A model generated the notes under the pieces. It was not told the origin of the DNA, ran no database searches, and was given only the letters and a program-made list of their open reading frames with translations. Of a stretch of DNA of 42,049 nucleotides, positions 1 through 42,049 are shown piece by piece (the first letter of the stretch is position 1; each line of letters begins with the position of its first letter). The stretch covers positions 1 through 42,049 of the forward strand of contig JBDRYB010000016.1 in NCBI GenBank assembly GCA_039803205.1, given 5' to 3'. The position numbers and the translations under genes were made by a program. This stretch comes from a candidate division WOR-3 bacterium (lineage in GTDB: Bacteria > Hydrothermota > Hydrothermia > JBDRYB01).

Positions 1-1438
1 CCCACCTCGTCCTGATATACATCCTCACCTCAGAGCCTATCTGGGTGCTGTCCCAGGCTATCCAGGAGAGCCTGGCCTCGGACTGGAGGAGGGGTTCTGA
101 GAATATGCCGGATTCATACCACTCTGTCGGGGAGCGGTCGTAGACATTGCCGGGCTCGCGGAAGGCCGCGTGATGATCGCGATCGGTAGGAAGCATGGTC
201 AATTTTTGGATGCTATCCTGGGTCCCCGTTATTTGAGCTCCCCAAAAAACGAAGGATGTGTCAGCATCAGCATATATTTCAGGCTTGCCGTCGTAATTCA
301 GATCCCCCACAAAGCCTCCAGCGTAGGTTTGAGGAATTCCGATCCTTGCGGTATCCTGAGGGTTGAAGTATGGCCATACTCCTGAATTGCGCCAGATTAA
401 AAGAGGAAGATTGGTACCATACCCTCTAAAAAAGACCAGGTCCAACCATCCGTCATCGTCAATATCATAAGCCGCACTTCCCCCAAAAGAGGTAGAAGTT
501 GCAAGCTTCACGGAATTGGCCGGATCAAACAGACCTCCGTTTGAGAAGTAGATAATTGATATCGCGCTTATAATCGCCCACCGGGAAACCACTATATCTA
601 GCCATCCGTCGTTGTTTAGATCGGCCAAGGTTATACCGTGCCAGTCAACACCTTGATTCAGAAAGATCTGAGAGGGATTATCCGTTAGATTCCTGGGCGT
701 ATTATCTCCCCATAGGATCAAAACTCCTCCGCTGTCCTTGCTTACTCCAGCTTTGGATATTGGGGTGACTATATCCAGGTATCCGTCCTTGTTTAGATCA
801 GCGACCTCAGGGTTGTGAGATATCCAGCCTCTTACTCCCCAACTGGAGAAATTGCTCGGAGAATATCCAGTTGAGCTACCCCAGAATATCTTTATACTAG
901 TTGTCGTAGTCTCGCATACAAAGATGAGGTCAAGGTAAGTATCCTTATCTATATCGTGGATGTAGAGGGCTTCACACTTAAGGGTTGGCAAATTGGTAAA
1001 GGTGTTAGGGTCTGGTCCCCCGGCAGCCTGGGAACCCCAGAAGACTCTAGAATTAGTTTCCGAAATAATAGCCCACCCGGAGCTTACCACAAACTCTGGC
1101 CATCCATCGAGATTCAGGTCAGCCATATCGCATCCACCAGCATACTGGTTTGGCAGCTGATAATCCCTATATAGGTTTTGTGAGTATCCGTCTGCGCTAC
1201 CAAACCATATTCGCGCCTTATAGCCTAAATAAGAGCTCGAGAACAGATCACAATACCCATCCCTGTTCGCGTCAAAGCGAGGAACGAACTCAACCGCGCC
1301 CGAGTCAGAGGGATTTGCTCCCTCAACCATCAATCTCCTTGAGACATAGAGGAGATCGCTATACCATCCATCCATAAAGTCCTGGGGCCTTGTCTCTGTC
1401 CAGGACCCCGCTACGAGAGCTACGCAAAGTTCAAGCAT
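1..1438 (-). CDS. FG-GAP/VCBS-repeat secreted beta-propeller protein (3' end runs off the window)
   Basis: Absent from the ORF track because it has no stop in the window. My translation from ATG 1438 (SD GGAGGTG upstream) begins MLELCVALVAGSWTET and stays open to position 1. It carries repeated Ca-binding motifs DANRDGYCD, DLNLDGWPE, DLNKDGYLD, DLNNDGWLD, DIDDDGWLD and DLNYDGKPE. Confidence 0.88.
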   Translation of the reverse strand, partial: MLELCVALVAGSWTETRPQDFMDGWYSDLLYVSRRLMVEGANPSDSGAVEFVPRFDANRDGYCDLFSSSYLGYKARIWFGSADGYSQNLYRDYQLPNQYAGGCDMADLNLDGWPEFVVSSGWAIISETNSRVFWGSQAAGGPDPNTFTNLPTLKCEALYIHDIDKDTYLDLIFVCETTTTSIKIFWGSSTGYSPSNFSSWGVRGWISHNPEVADLNKDGYLDIVTPISKAGVSKDSGGVLILWGDNTPRNLTDNPSQIFLNQGVDWHGITLADLNNDGWLDIVVSRWAIISAISIIYFSNGGLFDPANSVKLATSTSFGGSAAYDIDDDGWLDLVFFRGYGTNLPLLIWRNSGVWPYFNPQDTARIGIPQTYAGGFVGDLNYDGKPEIYADADTSFVFWGAQITGTQDSIQKLTMLPTDRDHHAAFREPGNVYDRSPTEWYESGIFSEPLLQSEARLSWIAWDSTQIGSEVRMYIRTRW

Positions 1439-1471
1439 GCTACACCTCCAAAAGGTTTCAGCTAGGGCTAT

Positions 1472-1505
1472 ATTATACGGAACGGACTGAAAGAAAACTG
1501 AAAGA
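1472..1505 (-). promoter_or_regulatory. -10 box with upstream 9-bp direct repeats (candidate activator site) for the FG-GAP gene
   Basis: The minus strand reads TCTTTCAGT-TT-TCTTTCAGT-N8-TATAAT. Repeats are at 1486-1494 and 1497-1505; the -10 is at 1472-1477. Confidence 0.65.
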
Positions 1506-37607: not shown

Positions 37608-39152
37608 CTATTTTACGACTGCCTTGCCTTTATAAACGGGAGAATTTCCTTCAATCGTTCCCACAATCCATATGTAGGCTCCTGCCCCAAGAGGTATCCG
37701 GTTCTGGCCCTTTTTTATCTCCCCTGAATAAAGTATTTGGCCATTAGGCGAGTATATCTTTATCCGCATGGCATCAGGAGAATTAACTAGCATTGCTCCG
37801 GGGACAAAAGAACAAGTTATTCCTTGATTTGGGCTCTTGGGGTTCAACTCTTTTACATCTTGAGAAGCGCAGGCATCTTTTACTGTTAAGGCGGATGCAG
37901 TGATGGCGATTGCAGGGTCCAAGCTTAAAGGGGATGCATCGTTAACTATGATAGGGGACGAAATCGCGTTCAGAGGGGGACTCATCACCGTTAGGGAAGA
38001 TTCCTGGACGCATCCCGGATAATTCCCATTGCGGTCAAGCCTCAAAACAAAAAAATCCTCCATTCCAGCGCTAAAACTCCATGTGTATCCAGCGACAGCA
38101 TAGCCTCCGTCCGCAGTCTGTATCACGGAGCTGGCAAGGTCACTGCTTGTTCCCCCGAATGTCCTTGTCCACGAGGGGTTTCCGGAGGGATCTAGCTTGA
38201 GAACCAAAAAATCACCACCTGTGCCAAGGCTTTCTGTGTAGCCGGCAACAGCATATCCCCCATCCACTGTCTGGATTATGGAGTATGCCCCATCCCAACG
38301 CGTCCCTCCGAATGTTTTCGCCAAGGAGAGGTTCCCTGAGGGATCAAGTTTAACGAACAAGAGATCATTATCCCCAGCTCCAAAACTGTATGTCCTTCCA
38401 ACCACTGCATATCCTTGATCCGTGGTCTGGATTATGGACCAGGCTTCCTCGTAGTCCGTTCCACCAAATTTCTTTGCCCAGGATAGGTTTCCTGATGCAT
38501 CAAGTTTAATAACTAGAAAATCCCATCCCGCGCCAAAGCTGTAGGTGAACCCTGCCACAGCATAACCCCCATCCTGGGTCTGGACTATTGAATAGGCCTT
38601 CTCTTCGTCCATTGTCCCGGGCCCTCCGAATGTCTTTGCCCACAAAAGGTTTCCTGACGCATCCAATCTTATAACAAGGAAATCGCATTCGCCCGCGCCA
38701 AAGCTGTAGGTGAACCCTGCCACAGCATAACCGCCATCCTGGGTCTGGACTATTGAATAGGCCCGTTCCTCGTCAGTTCCTCCAAATGTTTTCGCCCAAG
38801 ACAGGTTACCTGAGGGGTCAAGCTTGAAGACGAGAAAGTCATAAAGACCTGCGCCAAAACTCCATGTTCTTCCCGCAACAGCATAACCTCCATCCATTGT
38901 TTTGATCACGGACACAGCACCATCATTACTCTGTCCTCCAAAGGTTTTTGCCCAGTCTATGGTGCCATCCGAGTCAATCTTTAAGACGAGGCAATCATAG
39001 GCTCCCGCGCCAAAACCGGAGGTAGAGCCCGCTATTATATAGCCTCCATCCTGGTTCTGAGCTATTGAACCCACATAGTCGTAATCAGCACCTCCATATG
39101 CCCTTGCGAATAGAACCTGTCCGATCAGCAAGCTTATCAAAGATGCTGTCAT
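37608..39152 (-). CDS. secreted beta-propeller repeat protein with CTD-like tail
   Basis: About 7 repeats of ~55 aa (WAKTFGG..D..AYSI.QT.DGGYAVAG.T.SFGAG..DFLV.KLD.SGNL). Tail IYSPNGQ...GAYIW...KAVVK. Confidence 0.85.
   Translation of the reverse strand: MTASLISLLIGQVLFARAYGGADYDYVGSIAQNQDGGYIIAGSTSGFGAGAYDCLVLKIDSDGTIDWAKTFGGQSNDGAVSVIKTMDGGYAVAGRTWSFGAGLYDFLVFKLDPSGNLSWAKTFGGTDEERAYSIVQTQDGGYAVAGFTYSFGAGECDFLVIRLDASGNLLWAKTFGGPGTMDEEKAYSIVQTQDGGYAVAGFTYSFGAGWDFLVIKLDASGNLSWAKKFGGTDYEEAWSIIQTTDQGYAVVGRTYSFGAGDNDLLFVKLDPSGNLSLAKTFGGTRWDGAYSIIQTVDGGYAVAGYTESLGTGGDFLVLKLDPSGNPSWTRTFGGTSSDLASSVIQTADGGYAVAGYTWSFSAGMEDFFVLRLDRNGNYPGCVQESSLTVMSPPLNAISSPIIVNDASPLSLDPAIAITASALTVKDACASQDVKELNPKSPNQGITCSFVPGAMLVNSPDAMRIKIYSPNGQILYSGEIKKGQNRIPLGAGAYIWIVGTIEGNSPVYKGKAVVK
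38527..38763. repeat. intragenic 72-bp direct repeat (71/72 identical)
   Basis: 38527-38598 versus 38692-38763, with a single synonymous C/G difference. Confidence 0.85.
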
Positions 39153-39249
39153 GTCAAAACCTCCGTTTTATTCTCGTTTCCAAAAAACGCGGGCTGGCCA
39201 GGCCCTCCCAGGAGGCGTTCTAACCCTCTGGCCAGCCCGCTGTTTGGTC
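39153..39249 (-). promoter_or_regulatory. intergenic hairpin element, copy A (anti-SD-like loop with downstream SD)
   Basis: Stem GCGGGCTGGCCAG/CTGGCCAGCCCGC at 39189-39240, loop containing GCCTCC, then GTTTTTTGGAAAC...GGAGGTTTTGAC-ATG. Confidence 0.7.
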
Positions 39250-40791
39250 TCATCTCACCACCGCCTTGCCTTTGTAATTCTCAACACTCCAGATATATAC
39301 CCCCTGATCAAGGGGTATCCGGTTCTGGCCCTTTTCAAGCTTTCCGAAGTAGGCCAGCCTTCCATCTGCCGAATAGAGCCTTATGTCCATGACATCGGGA
39401 GAAATGAGAAGCAGACCTCCGGCCAGGGACAAGCAGGTTATTCCGGCATGAGAGCCAGAGCCGACCTCACCAACATCCTCGTAAACAGGCTCACACGCCT
39501 CTATCACTGTTGGGTTTATTGCCAGTATCTGCATGGTCGGGATGTTGACTGCCGGAGAGCAATCCGCGCCCACGATAGGTGAGGATATTTCAAGGGCGGG
39601 AACGGTCGTTAATGGAGAACATTCCAGAACGCAGTCGGCATAGTTACCCTCAGAATCCAGCCTGAGAACGAGGATATCAGGGCCTACAGCGCCGAAGTTG
39701 GCCGTATATCCAGCTACAACACAGCCTCCATCCGTGGTCCGGGTTACTGAGTGAGCTTCATCGTTAGCCGCTCCTCCAAATGTTCTGGCCCACTGGAACG
39801 CGCCATCTTTGGCCATCTTGACCAGGAGGCAATCATACTGACCTATGCCAAAACTCAATGTAGAACCCGCAATAACATAACCTTCGTCCGCGGTCTGGGT
39901 TACCGAGTAGGCATAGTCCCAGTTCTCTCCCCCGAACGCCTTCGTCCATTCCAGGCCGCCATCCGAGTCCAGCTTGACCACGAGAAAATCCGGAACCCCA
40001 ACGCCAAAGCTCCCCGTGAATCCACCGACAAAATAACCTCCATCCGCGGTCTGGGTTATGGAGTAGGCAAAATCACCACCTGCGCCGCCAAAGGTTTTTG
40101 CCCAGTCCAGGCCGCCATCCGAATCCAGCTTCAGGACGAGGAAATCCTGGCTCCCGGCACCGAAGCTTCCCGTATATCCTGCAACAACAAGACCTCCATC
40201 CGTGGCCTGGATTACGCACCAGGCGGCATCATCCCCCGTTCCACCGAAGGTTTTTGCCCAGACCAGGCCGCCATCCGAGTCCAGTTTAAGGACAAGGAAA
40301 TCGTACCCACCTGCGCCAAAACTCAGCGTAGAACCCGCAACCGCATAGCCGTCCGTGGTCTGGACAACTGAGTAGCCATAATCAGTGCCCGGCCCGCCAA
40401 AGGTTTTTGCCCATACGATGTTGGAGCCGTCCGAGTTTATCTTCAGGACGAGAAAATCATCCAGACCAGCGCCATAGCTCTGTGTCCGTCCCACGATAAC
40501 ATAACCTCCATCCGTGGTTTGGATTACGGAATAGGCGCGTTCGTTTTTCAAAGTAGCTCCGCCGAACCCCTTGGCCCATTGGAGCGCACCGTTCGGGTCA
40601 AGCTTCAGGACGAAGAAATTGCCATCACTTTGGCCAAAACTCCTCGTGTATCCAGCAATAGCAAACCCCCCGTCCGTGGTCTGGACTATGGCGTTGGGAT
40701 AATCCGCGTAATCGGTGCTAGTTCCACCATAGGCCCTGGCGAAAAGGGTCAAAGACATCAGGATGTTCGTGGTTAAGAAAAAGATTGGCAC
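39250..40791 (-). CDS. secreted beta-propeller repeat protein with CTD-like tail (paralog of 37608-39152)
   Basis: Same repeat type as its neighbour. Start moved to GTG 40791 after SD AGGAGG. Tail LYSADGRL...GVYIW...KAVVR. Confidence 0.85.
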   Translation of the reverse strand: MPIFFLTTNILMSLTLFARAYGGTSTDYADYPNAIVQTTDGGFAIAGYTRSFGQSDGNFFVLKLDPNGALQWAKGFGGATLKNERAYSVIQTTDGGYVIVGRTQSYGAGLDDFLVLKINSDGSNIVWAKTFGGPGTDYGYSVVQTTDGYAVAGSTLSFGAGGYDFLVLKLDSDGGLVWAKTFGGTGDDAAWCVIQATDGGLVVAGYTGSFGAGSQDFLVLKLDSDGGLDWAKTFGGAGGDFAYSITQTADGGYFVGGFTGSFGVGVPDFLVVKLDSDGGLEWTKAFGGENWDYAYSVTQTADEGYVIAGSTLSFGIGQYDCLLVKMAKDGAFQWARTFGGAANDEAHSVTRTTDGGCVVAGYTANFGAVGPDILVLRLDSEGNYADCVLECSPLTTVPALEISSPIVGADCSPAVNIPTMQILAINPTVIEACEPVYEDVGEVGSGSHAGITCLSLAGGLLLISPDVMDIRLYSADGRLAYFGKLEKGQNRIPLDQGVYIWSVENYKGKAVVR

Positions 40792-40892
40792 GATGAAACC
40801 TCCTTGAGGGTTTTTGTTTCCAAGAACAAGATGGGCCGGCCGGGTTTTAGGGAGGTGCGATGCAATGTTGCCGGCCGGCCCATGGTATTTGT
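40792..40892 (-). promoter_or_regulatory. intergenic hairpin element, copy B
   Basis: Stem ATGGGCCGGCCGG/CCGGCCGGCCCAT at 40831-40883, loop containing CACCTCCC, then CTTGTTCTTGGAAACAAAAACC...AGGAGGTTTCATC-GTG. Confidence 0.7.
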
Positions 40893-41744
40893 TCACCTTA
40901 TCATCAGCCTGCCTGAACAGGCCTGATCGCCAGCAGAGAGCAGATAGAAGTATACACCGGGATCAAGGATCACGTTCTTAGTCATGTAGAAGTCTGTTTC
41001 AAGCACTGTCCTTCCAGAAGCGTCGTAGATGGAGAGTATGCCCTTCTCAGCGCCTGATATCGTGAAGGACACAAGGCCATCAGAGGGATTAGGATACACC
41101 CTGAAGGATACAGGTTTTGACGCCTCACCTTCGGCCACATCCGTTGTCTGAAGCACGGCCCTTATCATGAGGTCGCCCCGGAAAGCGCCTTCCCACCATC
41201 CATCAGGGCCATAGAAGTATATGTGGCCGTCTTGGTGAGCATCATACCCCGTAGAATAGAGCAAGTCGAAATTCGTGTTGCTCCACCCCACATATACATA
41301 GCCCGGATTGATGCTGATTCCGTAAGCGCTGACATCTATGGGATTCCAGGCGTAATAGGTCAAATCCGTTTTGCGTCCGGATGCCAGAACCGTGCCAGGT
41401 GAACCCCCTGTTCCATCATCATTCCAGACATACCAGTCCAATGGAGCATAGGCCTGATTGGCATTCCCAGGATAATAGAGCAGGGTGGTTATCTGTCCAG
41501 CTTTGCTTACTGGGAGCTGCATTGCTACCATTATTTCATAACCCCCAGCAATAATATCCTCGCCGGCCATCACGCCATCATCAACCTTGAGGGTCTCAGC
41601 CCCGGGCAGATAGAAGGGCCTGTAGTCGCCAGATACCCTGGTAGGCGTGAGCACCACGGGGTTGCTCACGAGATTCTCAGCCCTCACCGCTGAGCCACAG
41701 ACCCACAGGTTGAACATGCACATAGTCAAGATACATCCTGTCAT
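40893..41744 (-). CDS. secreted protein with T9SS type A-like sorting domain
   Basis: Tail VYPNPS...IYDASGR...PGVYFY...RLMIR. SD GGGAGG. Confidence 0.82.
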   Translation of the reverse strand: MTGCILTMCMFNLWVCGSAVRAENLVSNPVVLTPTRVSGDYRPFYLPGAETLKVDDGVMAGEDIIAGGYEIMVAMQLPVSKAGQITTLLYYPGNANQAYAPLDWYVWNDDGTGGSPGTVLASGRKTDLTYYAWNPIDVSAYGISINPGYVYVGWSNTNFDLLYSTGYDAHQDGHIYFYGPDGWWEGAFRGDLMIRAVLQTTDVAEGEASKPVSFRVYPNPSDGLVSFTISGAEKGILSIYDASGRTVLETDFYMTKNVILDPGVYFYLLSAGDQACSGRLMIR

Positions 41745-41847
41745 GACAAAACCTCCCTATGGTTTTGTTTTTTGCGATGCACAAAGGGCTGGCCAGAGTA
41801 GGGAAATGGGAGGTGAGGTAGAGATATTCTCCGGCCGGCCCGAAAGA
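41745..41847 (-). promoter_or_regulatory. intergenic hairpin element, copy C
   Basis: Stem GGGCCGGCCGGAG/CTCTGGCCAGCCC at 41786-41841, loop containing CCTCACCTCCC, then TTTGTG...AAAAAACAAAACC...GGGAGGTTTTGTC-ATG. Confidence 0.7.
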
Positions 41848-42049
41848 TCATCTTATTACCTTAAGGGTTTTCGTCTGGCCTTCAAACCTGAGAACGGCCA
41901 GGTAGACGCCTTTGGTTTCCGTGTTTAAGCTGAAGGCGTGATCCCCTGCTGAAAGGACACCATCGTAAAGGTTCTCTGTCAGGCGACCCGAGCCGTCATA
42001 AACAGAAAGGGAGACGCGGGCCTCTTTCGGAAGACAAAGGTAAAGATCA
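41848..42049 (-). CDS. 3' end of another protein with T9SS-like C-terminal domain (partial)
   Basis: My translation: ...LPKEARVSLSVYDGSGRLTENLYDGVLSAGDHAFSLNTETKGVYLAVLRFEGQTKTLKVIR*, stop at 41848-41850. Confidence 0.8.
   Translation of the reverse strand, partial: DLYLCLPKEARVSLSVYDGSGRLTENLYDGVLSAGDHAFSLNTETKGVYLAVLRFEGQTKTLKVIR

Follow-up and report, generated by a model that had tools for sequence, protein, structure and literature searches.

A genus-restricted family of 3'-end hairpins with an anti-Shine-Dalgarno loop behind T9SS-type cargo genes of a candidate division WOR-3 bacterium

The hairpins that recur between secreted-protein genes in a tandem array of a candidate division WOR-3 bacterium belong to a genus-restricted family of 3'-end elements of T9SS-type cargo genes. 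Their position, the covariation of the stem, the conservation of the loop and the existence of two forms are established by our analysis. As to function, we favour tentatively, with slightly less than even confidence, a ribosome-sensitive intrinsic terminator whose exposed anti-Shine-Dalgarno (anti-SD) loop would pair with strong GGAGGUG-type RBSs, not necessarily that of the next gene.

In the window (the whole 42,049-nt stretch analysed), the array lies on the minus strand, as do all its features given here. It opens with the 3' end of a gene truncated by the contig end (41848..42049), with a T9SS-type C-terminal tail (in-house tail HMM, E 1e-17) and an ATGA overlap at its stop. Behind it lies the copy C hairpin (41786..41841; arms 41829-41841 and 41786-41798, loop of 30 nt with CACCUCCC at 41808-41815), which is crossed by a putatively translated mini-ORF of 36 codons (41741..41851), termed the relay, with ATGA overlaps at both the upstream stop and the next start. 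An SD (41751..41757) then precedes the gene for a 283-aa protein (40893..41744) with a T9SS type A sorting domain (TIGR04183, 35.9 bits at a cut-off of 23; PF18962 below cut-off). In the following gap, a GTG overlapping the upstream stop (40896) shares its frame with the next gene, and the copy B hairpin (40831..40883; arms 40871-40883 and 40831-40843, loop of 27 nt with GCACCUCCC at 40850-40858) is followed by an SD (40798..40803) and the GTG start (40794) of the first propeller gene (39250..40794), which encodes a 514-aa delta-60-repeat beta-propeller with a T9SS-like tail (TIGR02608 above cut-off; PF17164; weak TIGR04183, E 0.006). Copy A (39189..39240; arms 39228-39240 and 39189-39201, loop of 26 nt) has the most degenerate loop, GCCUCC at 39211-39216, the CCUC of which pairs inside the loop in the MFE fold. 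It is crossed by a relay ORF of 34 codons (39149..39253), likewise putatively translated, with ATGA overlaps at both ends, and is followed by an SD (39159..39164) and the final gene of the array (37608..39152), a second 514-aa beta-propeller with a T9SS-like tail, 3' of whose stop no hairpin element was found. The folding z-scores of copies A, B and C were -3.6, -3.0 and -2.9 (200 shuffles). The shared layout of hairpin, loop, spacer and SD that the original prediction had claimed for the three gaps was indeed present in all of them, with the claimed spacers of 24, 27 and 29 nt and compensatory U-A/C-G swaps between copies A and B. The claimed 13-bp stem is perfect in these two copies, whereas copy C has one C-A mismatch and one G-U pair.

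The family counts 35 copies in this genome, and occurs also in both congeners and in metagenomes (21 of 64 metagenome parts covered). We collected 68 copies, comprising 27 internal copies and 41 without a close downstream gene, defined as no co-oriented gene start within ~70 nt of the stem. The stem has an 11-pair consensus with 95% of the cells paired (<=58% in slid controls) and a predicted MFE of about -27 to -30 kcal/mol; 10 of the 11 pairs show changes on both sides, and the stem thus covaries. The loop has a median length of 23 nt (range 12-32) and the consensus motif GCACCUCCCGU, and its core, CACCUCC, equals the 16S anti-SD. In both forms, conservation reached 90-100% per position in the core, as compared with 31-68% at most positions 5' of it (clustered to 44). 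The core is predicted to be unpaired in 62 of the 68 copies, and the base preceding it is mostly G, else A or U. The exact core was retained in 37/41 copies without a close downstream gene and in 23/27 internal copies; loss of the loop CCTCC in further homologues would have counted against the original prediction.

The element goes with its upstream gene, not with the downstream gene. All of the first 23 copies lay behind a gene with a T9SS-like tail, and in the collected set the HMM detected a tail gene directly upstream in 60 of 68 copies, four of the other eight being second hairpins of tandem pairs. Moreover, among strong hairpins with a large loop, CACCTCC (<=1 mismatch) was found in 30 of the 37 that lie behind T9SS-tail genes vs 2 of the 61 that follow other genes. 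T9SS-type tail proteins account for about 243 of the roughly 2,070 genes in this genome; the upstream genes span several tail subtypes, and two paralogue families account for 29 of the 32 genes that bear the element. We assigned the element to the upstream gene because the stem begins a median of 8 nt past the stop (50/60 within 12 nt), as opposed to 22 nt in ordinary terminators, of which 8 of 58 start within 12 nt (p=2e-10); p-values in this work are overstated, the copies being related by duplication.

Two forms of the element can be told apart. Terminal copies combine a stronger U-tract with, in most cases, a preceding TAA stop, and lack a close downstream gene, whereas internal copies have a weaker U-tract, an ATGA overlap before them and a mini-ORF across them. 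The U-tract averaged 4.7/8 in internal and 5.7/8 in terminal copies (range 0-7; p=0.003, before two copies were reclassified), with only 0-3 U in some internal copies. The ATGA overlap preceded 23 of 26 internal vs 5 of 34 terminal copies, and was seen in 6 of 22 element-free tail genes with another close behind. In 19 of the 25 internal copies, with one more fused, the relay frame stopped within -6 to +7 nt of the start that follows, as compared with 6 and 3 in the other frames and 4.8+-1.9 (maximum 12) in 2000 shuffles; at the cluster level, coupling was found in 9.4/14 vs 2.4 and 1.6. Five of the 25 had no coupled relay frame. The relay peptides showed no conservation, and the relay ORF spans a gap of 82-104 nt that holds the terminator-like hairpin.

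Efficient terminators normally have loops of ~3-8 nt, and one of 22 nt is unusual; the element has the GC-rich stem of >=7 bp expected of a terminator, but not its short loop. In E. coli, terminators this near the stop codon are repressed by ribosomes, according to the tR2 tests outlined in PMC4824070. A ribosome positioned on the stop codon would cover the start of the stem, so that termination would probably depend on that ribosome. The leaky terminator that the original prediction offered as an alternative is closer to the evidence than its pseudoknot leader. In internal copies, re-initiation at the overlapping AUG would take the ribosome through the hairpin and deliver it at the next start, so that expression of the next cargo gene would depend on translation of the previous one. 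Once the hairpin has folded on the finished or processed transcript, its open loop could pair, in cis or in trans, with SD regions of cargo and envelope mRNAs at their 5' ends and would thereby damp their translation. The one RNA run from the same study gave a single 36-nt piece, which speaks neither way on expression.

Several candidate partners were compared with the loop. A C or T, compatible with the G of the loop, followed the GGAGGTG SD in 32/45 tail genes as compared with 8/44 others (11 vs 5 at the cluster level). The leader of a TonB receptor contains, in 3/3 species, a separate loop-complementary GGAGGTGC box between the -10 hexamer and the real SD, and a second exported gene has such a separate box in 2/3 species, these second-box cases being 2 among 11 tandem-SD leaders. 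Against the RBS of its own gene, the loop gave -10.9 kcal/mol for cognate vs -10.5 for permuted pairs (p=0.047 for n=38, in a series of several tests), and p=0.18 and 0.06 within classes. RBS fit did not differ between tail genes with and without the element (p=0.97), the loop selected tail genes among all strong-SD genes no better than the 16S tail did (p=0.44), and C/T-type SDs were equally common in 38 relatives in which no element was found. In one element-free genome, 3/20 C/T-type vs 1/20 A-type sites head tail genes (20/21 and 20/27 sites fetched), and these tail genes end in small-loop hairpins or none. Roughly assigned operon heads carried a C/T-type SD in only 7 of 23 cases. Furthermore, GGAGGTG is absent from 16S and 23S rRNA, the coding sequences of the copies' own genes showed no clear excess of partners over codon shuffles (9 vs 4.5 and 3 vs 2.0 for GGAGGTG), and the last 38 nt of these coding sequences contained none. 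A more far-reaching form of the pairing, which we consider unlikely, is that cargo mRNA 3' ends make up a distributed anti-SD RNA pool that would cross-repress the RBSs of cargo and outer-membrane genes, including the TonB receptor with its dedicated landing box, and thereby render the secretion load self-limiting, while the relay-crossed hairpin would let ribosome traffic determine the extent to which each cargo array is transcribed.

The near-invariant loop, which covaries with none of the tested RNA partners, would also suit a protein-binding site, for example one for KH- or S1-type, 16S-tail-like recognition, that serves to protect, localise or process the 3' ends of cargo mRNAs, with the SD match as a by-product. 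Era, indeed, binds the 16S 3' end. The fixed orientation of the loop, 25-35 nt from the stop in 22/25 internal copies, and the rarity of G-U-compatible changes in its core point the same way. However, the core is exactly the anti-SD, its preceding base fits the GGAGGUG-C/U sites enriched on tail genes, the TonB-receptor leader has a conserved complementary box, and no candidate protein was identified; we regard a protein site as rather unlikely. Hfq was not found.

It is improbable, in our estimation, that the element is an ordinary terminator that duplication and gene conversion spread together with the cargo tail, with a loop that is neutral or acts at the DNA level in array rearrangement. 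Such copying would fit its occurrence in a single genus among those searched and, for the most part, in two paralogue families, as well as the similar GGCC-rich stems of ordinary terminators here, and tandem hairpins and tail remnants show frequent deletion and recombination in the arrays: one congener has four tandem pairs, one with a gene-end remnant between the hairpins, while this genome has single hairpins. Nevertheless, conservation is confined to the 7-11 nt core, with divergence in the flanking loop bases and both stem types; the element has persisted across three species that share 72-84% protein identity and stands behind tails of several subtypes, and the sole Y1 transposase of the genome has its own unrelated repeats. 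If the loop were neutral, a genus-specific terminator family of modest interest would remain.

The original prediction had placed the element in a downstream leader, its loop forming an H-type pseudoknot with the SD of the next gene, and we find it quite improbable that this pairing conserves the loop. Pairing of 6-8 bp is possible in 16/27 internal copies, among them copies A, B and C (6-7 bp), and may for this reason arise as a by-product; an unusually good fit to its own next RBS was seen for one variant loop, C5:48634, and one congener copy matches an RBS ~70 nt downstream over 11 nt, yet a -10 hexamer lies between. However, homologues without a downstream SD or gene, which the original prediction had named as evidence against itself, are common: the 41/68 copies without a close co-oriented gene are conserved at least as well as the internal ones, 37 of them with the exact core, and GGAGG occurs within 60 nt of the element in 19/68 copies overall and in 3/41 of these. 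Where the next RBS of an internal copy lacks GGAGG, the core is also kept in 10 of 11 cases, and cognate loop-RBS duplexes averaged -9.3 vs -9.9 kcal/mol for permuted ones (p=0.985, n=27), which leaves the pseudoknot without a cognate advantage and, as a general explanation, largely refuted. Finally, a REP/RAYT origin was rejected, as the sole Y1 gene is flanked by a different repeat and the element is confined to tail genes, and so was SECIS-like recoding, because TAA and TAG stops also precede the element.

The requested searches delimited the family. Across 151 genomes from the phylum, a covariance model run with stricter filters and on 35 candidates per genome found strong copies in the genus only. 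Of its six weak matches, five were hairpins lacking the motif, and the sixth had the motif, a weak stem and no upstream tail gene. All 10 matches that a GTDB pattern scan gave in other phyla scored <=29 bits and lacked a tail gene upstream; we read them as chance, and in other families of the class the pattern was at or below the control level. Rfam returned no match at gathering score in the window, and the best hit on 7 further loci (E 0.63) was far below gathering and at chance level by E-value. The literature searched, with subscription journals and supplements outside its scope, does not describe it. The notion of a so far undescribed structured RNA that is conserved, carries an anti-SD loop and accompanies secreted-cargo genes is supported.

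In stem-loops of the cip-cel type, endonuclease cleavage beside the stem sets stoichiometry. Genes for RNase III and the PorV family are present in this genome. The element resembles close-to-stop intrinsic terminators (as outlined in PMC4824070) in its GC stem at gene ends, followed by a U-tract of varying richness, and its short stop-to-stem distance, and ribosome termination structures (as summarised in PMC7518266) in its stable structure directly after the stop codon; unlike intrinsic terminators, it has a median 23-nt loop with a conserved core, is tied to one gene class and has an internal form crossed by a mini-ORF of conserved frame. As in the 3'-UTR/5'-UTR pairing of icaR in Staphylococcus aureus, an unpaired 3'-UTR anti-SD motif could block an SD, but icaR, in the account of PMC3868564, is one gene with a long 3'-UTR and ~40 nt of complementarity, whereas here the motif is multicopy, sits in a hairpin loop and pairs with its own RBS barely above permuted pairs. 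The LhrC sRNAs of Listeria monocytogenes are likewise multicopy with a CU-rich terminator-loop motif, through which the SD of an mRNA for an envelope protein is bound independently of the chaperone Hfq; as PMC4132741 presents them, they are stress-induced sRNAs with three CU-rich sites, as opposed to one site per copy on mRNA 3' ends. Cuckoo/CcsR (RSs0680) of Alphaproteobacteria shares a repeated, anti-SD-like loop motif co-transcribed behind a gene, but by the description in PMC4615179 it has CCUCCUCCC loops, 2-4 adjacent hairpins and variable stems; our element, with GCACCUCCCG, mostly single hairpins and conserved stems, was not assigned to it. Translational coupling by termination-reinitiation at ATGA overlaps is known (PMC10666635; see also PMC6728339) and requires overlaps or very short gaps (PMC10666635, in outline), such as were found at both junctions here (23/26 relay starts, 19/25 relay stops), with -4 overlaps at both relay-frame ends in window copies A and C. 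Unlike known cases, the middle ORF has no conserved peptide and would only bridge the gap that holds the hairpin. The combination of three devices each known on its own, a close terminator, re-initiation coupling and a C-rich SD-blocking loop, would form one portable 100-nt module, usable, if the favoured reading is true, as a synthetic-biology part.

The window is the entire contig C16 of a 2.3-Mb genome (G000), and its right end carries four co-oriented genes on the minus strand. These comprise a gene end cut by the contig boundary, a 283-aa protein whose T9SS type A sorting domain passes the TIGR04183 cut-off, and, from domain searches, two 514-aa β-propellers with a tail similar to that of the 283-aa protein. 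The layout of hairpin, loop motif, spacer and SD proposed for this array was indeed present in all three gaps. The stem has one mismatch and one G-U pair in copy C; of the three loops, that of copy A is the most degenerate. The loop core, CACCUCC, is identical to that of the 16S rRNA 3′ end in G000, and Rfam gave no match for the element. At the left contig end, window 2-1477 (minus strand) is a paralogue of the cargo genes of contig C38; it has a -10 hexamer and an SD of the GGAGGTG-T type.

Further copies were gathered by pattern and profile searches, and a covariance model was built from 52 copies. The suggested search of the own genome yielded 43 matches with E-values no higher than 1, consisting of 35 distinct copies, opposite-strand duplicates and plain terminators, and the two congeners yielded 17 and 9 matches, including a small number of opposite-strand duplicates. 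Across 151 genomes of the phylum, strong matches were confined to the own genus. A metagenome pattern scan, covering 21 of 64 parts, returned 121 loci (model run on the first 80, tail HMM on all), with true copies at 11 of them. The stem covaries as anticipated, with 95% of cells paired, two-sided change in 10 of 11 pairs and at most 58% pairing in slid registers; the shuffle control is inflated by the kinship of the copies. The working set (n = 68) is a filtered set of 68 minus one false hit plus one hand-added copy; two copies were reassigned by hand from the internal to the terminal class, a single start was also corrected manually, and the filter missed some known congener and metagenome copies. 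The element is a real, undescribed, genus-restricted RNA element of putative function, and the literature searched, which excluded subscription journals and supplements, contained no description of it.

Two loci in the congener G001 (L221, L225) carry an inserted ~45-nt hairpin, possibly a small mobile remnant, directly after the loop motif. Tandem copies occur at L017, L019, L020 and L021 (G001) and at L091, some of them separated by the final codons of a cargo tail or by half of one, suggesting that whole cargo genes were deleted from arrays. A Y1 (IS200/RAYT-like) transposase gene (G000:C13:5051-6150) lies between tandem palindromic repeats of ~60 nt (four upstream, three downstream) that share no sequence relation with the element.

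An in-house HMM assigned T9SS-like tails to about 243 of the roughly 2,070 genes called in G000. The genome also has two families of propellers, each with about 60 members, and four matches to the PorV family that exceed the cut-off. A tail gene lies directly upstream in 60 of the 68 copies. When the best hairpin behind each gene was chosen without using the loop motif, CACCTCC (at most one mismatch) appeared in 30 of 37 large-loop strong hairpins behind tail genes, versus 2 of 61 behind other genes; five more hairpins behind non-tail genes contained its reverse complement, because the terminator is shared with a tail gene from the opposite side. The median stop-to-stem distance is 8 nt; for 58 ordinary terminators of the same genome it is 22 nt. 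The element belongs to the upstream gene. In Escherichia coli, ribosomes repress terminators at such short distances (PMC4824070). At L199 (G000:C1:419700-419711, minus strand), a tail-gene stop directly abuts a reverse-complement copy of the loop motif, behind which lies a plain tetraloop terminator.

The element has two forms. Of 26 internal copies, which have a co-oriented gene close downstream, 23 show an upstream ATGA overlap, versus 5 of 34 terminal copies; among element-free tail genes lying close to another tail gene, this overlap occurs in 6 of 22. The frame opened by the overlap crosses the hairpin over gaps of 82-104 nt, and in 19 of 25 copies its stop falls between -6 and +7 nt from the next start (other frames, 6 and 3; shuffle null, 4.8 ± 1.9); in window copy B, beyond these 19, it is fused in frame with the next gene. 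Five of the 25 are uncoupled. The excess persists after clustering (9.4 of 14 clusters versus 2.4 and 1.6), and the relay peptides are not conserved. The U-tracts of internal copies are weaker. The SD-like sites ahead of their relay AUG are somewhat better (-6.9 versus -4.5 kcal/mol), a difference partly imposed by the codons of the tail. Re-initiation requires overlaps or very short gaps (PMC10666635), so a relay ORF would be reasonable for coupling genes over a 95-nt gap.

Structure, position, the two forms, loop conservation and relay-frame retention are established. We propose, tentatively, that termination at the element would be sensitive to ribosomes, that the ribosome may be relayed to the next gene, and that the loop may pair, in cis or in trans, with SD regions; the combination is a serious possibility, and its terminator-plus-relay part alone is more likely than its loop-target part.

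As to loop partners, GGAGGTG is absent from 16S and 23S rRNA and is not clearly in excess within the coding sequence of the element's own gene. The 16S rRNA gene (L001) lacks the 8-mer of the usual EUB338 probe site. The loop fits its own gene's RBS slightly better than permuted ones (p = 0.047), without difference between genes with and without the element. A GGAGGTG-type SD is followed by C or T in 32 of 45 tail genes versus 8 of 44 others (11 versus 5 clusters), which fits the loop's G rather better than it fits the 16S U. Tail-gene SDs in G000 are also longer than average (GGAGG then T: 102 of 133 against 134 of 355). The leader of a TonB-dependent receptor gene (L198:3177-3214; G000:C7:18176-18214; orthologues L232 and L233) has two SD-like boxes, the first, GGAGGTGC, lying immediately after the -10 hexamer and separate from the real SD; it is kept in three of three species and in G000 complements the loop consensus perfectly over 11 nt. 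In two of three species, this layout recurs at a second exported gene (L277, 326 aa). The C/T-type SDs and conserved leader boxes make the 5′ ends of envelope mRNAs candidate partners. However, C/T-type SDs are equally common in relatives without the element, no more than 7 of 23 rough operon heads have one, the loop's cargo selectivity over all strong SDs does not exceed that of the 16S tail (p = 0.44), and the leader boxes are 2 of 11 tandem-SD leaders. A loop serving as a protein-binding site is an unlikely but appreciable alternative. A neutral or DNA-level origin of the element is improbable.

Pairing of the loop with the next gene's SD, the adjacent pseudoknot of the original prediction, fails as a general explanation and is very doubtful. 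In the window copies 6-7 bp can still form, but this pairing does not account for loop conservation. A close co-oriented downstream gene is lacking in 41 of 68 copies, of which 3 have GGAGG within 60 nt and 37 keep the exact core, versus 23 of 27 internal copies; the core is also kept in 10 of the 11 internal copies that have no GGAGG in the next RBS, and the loop pairs with its own next RBS no better than in permuted pairs (p = 0.985). Two internal-type copies (G000:C1:239480-239550, minus strand, and L047) have an intact SD downstream and no gene, with a TTGAC hexamer instead.

The element would work in the manner of a close intrinsic terminator. The icaR (PMC3868564), LhrC (PMC4132741) and cuckoo RNAs (PMC4615179) each have some features in common with it. 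It is a member of none of them, since the cuckoo motif and multi-hairpin layout are absent and Rfam has no match.
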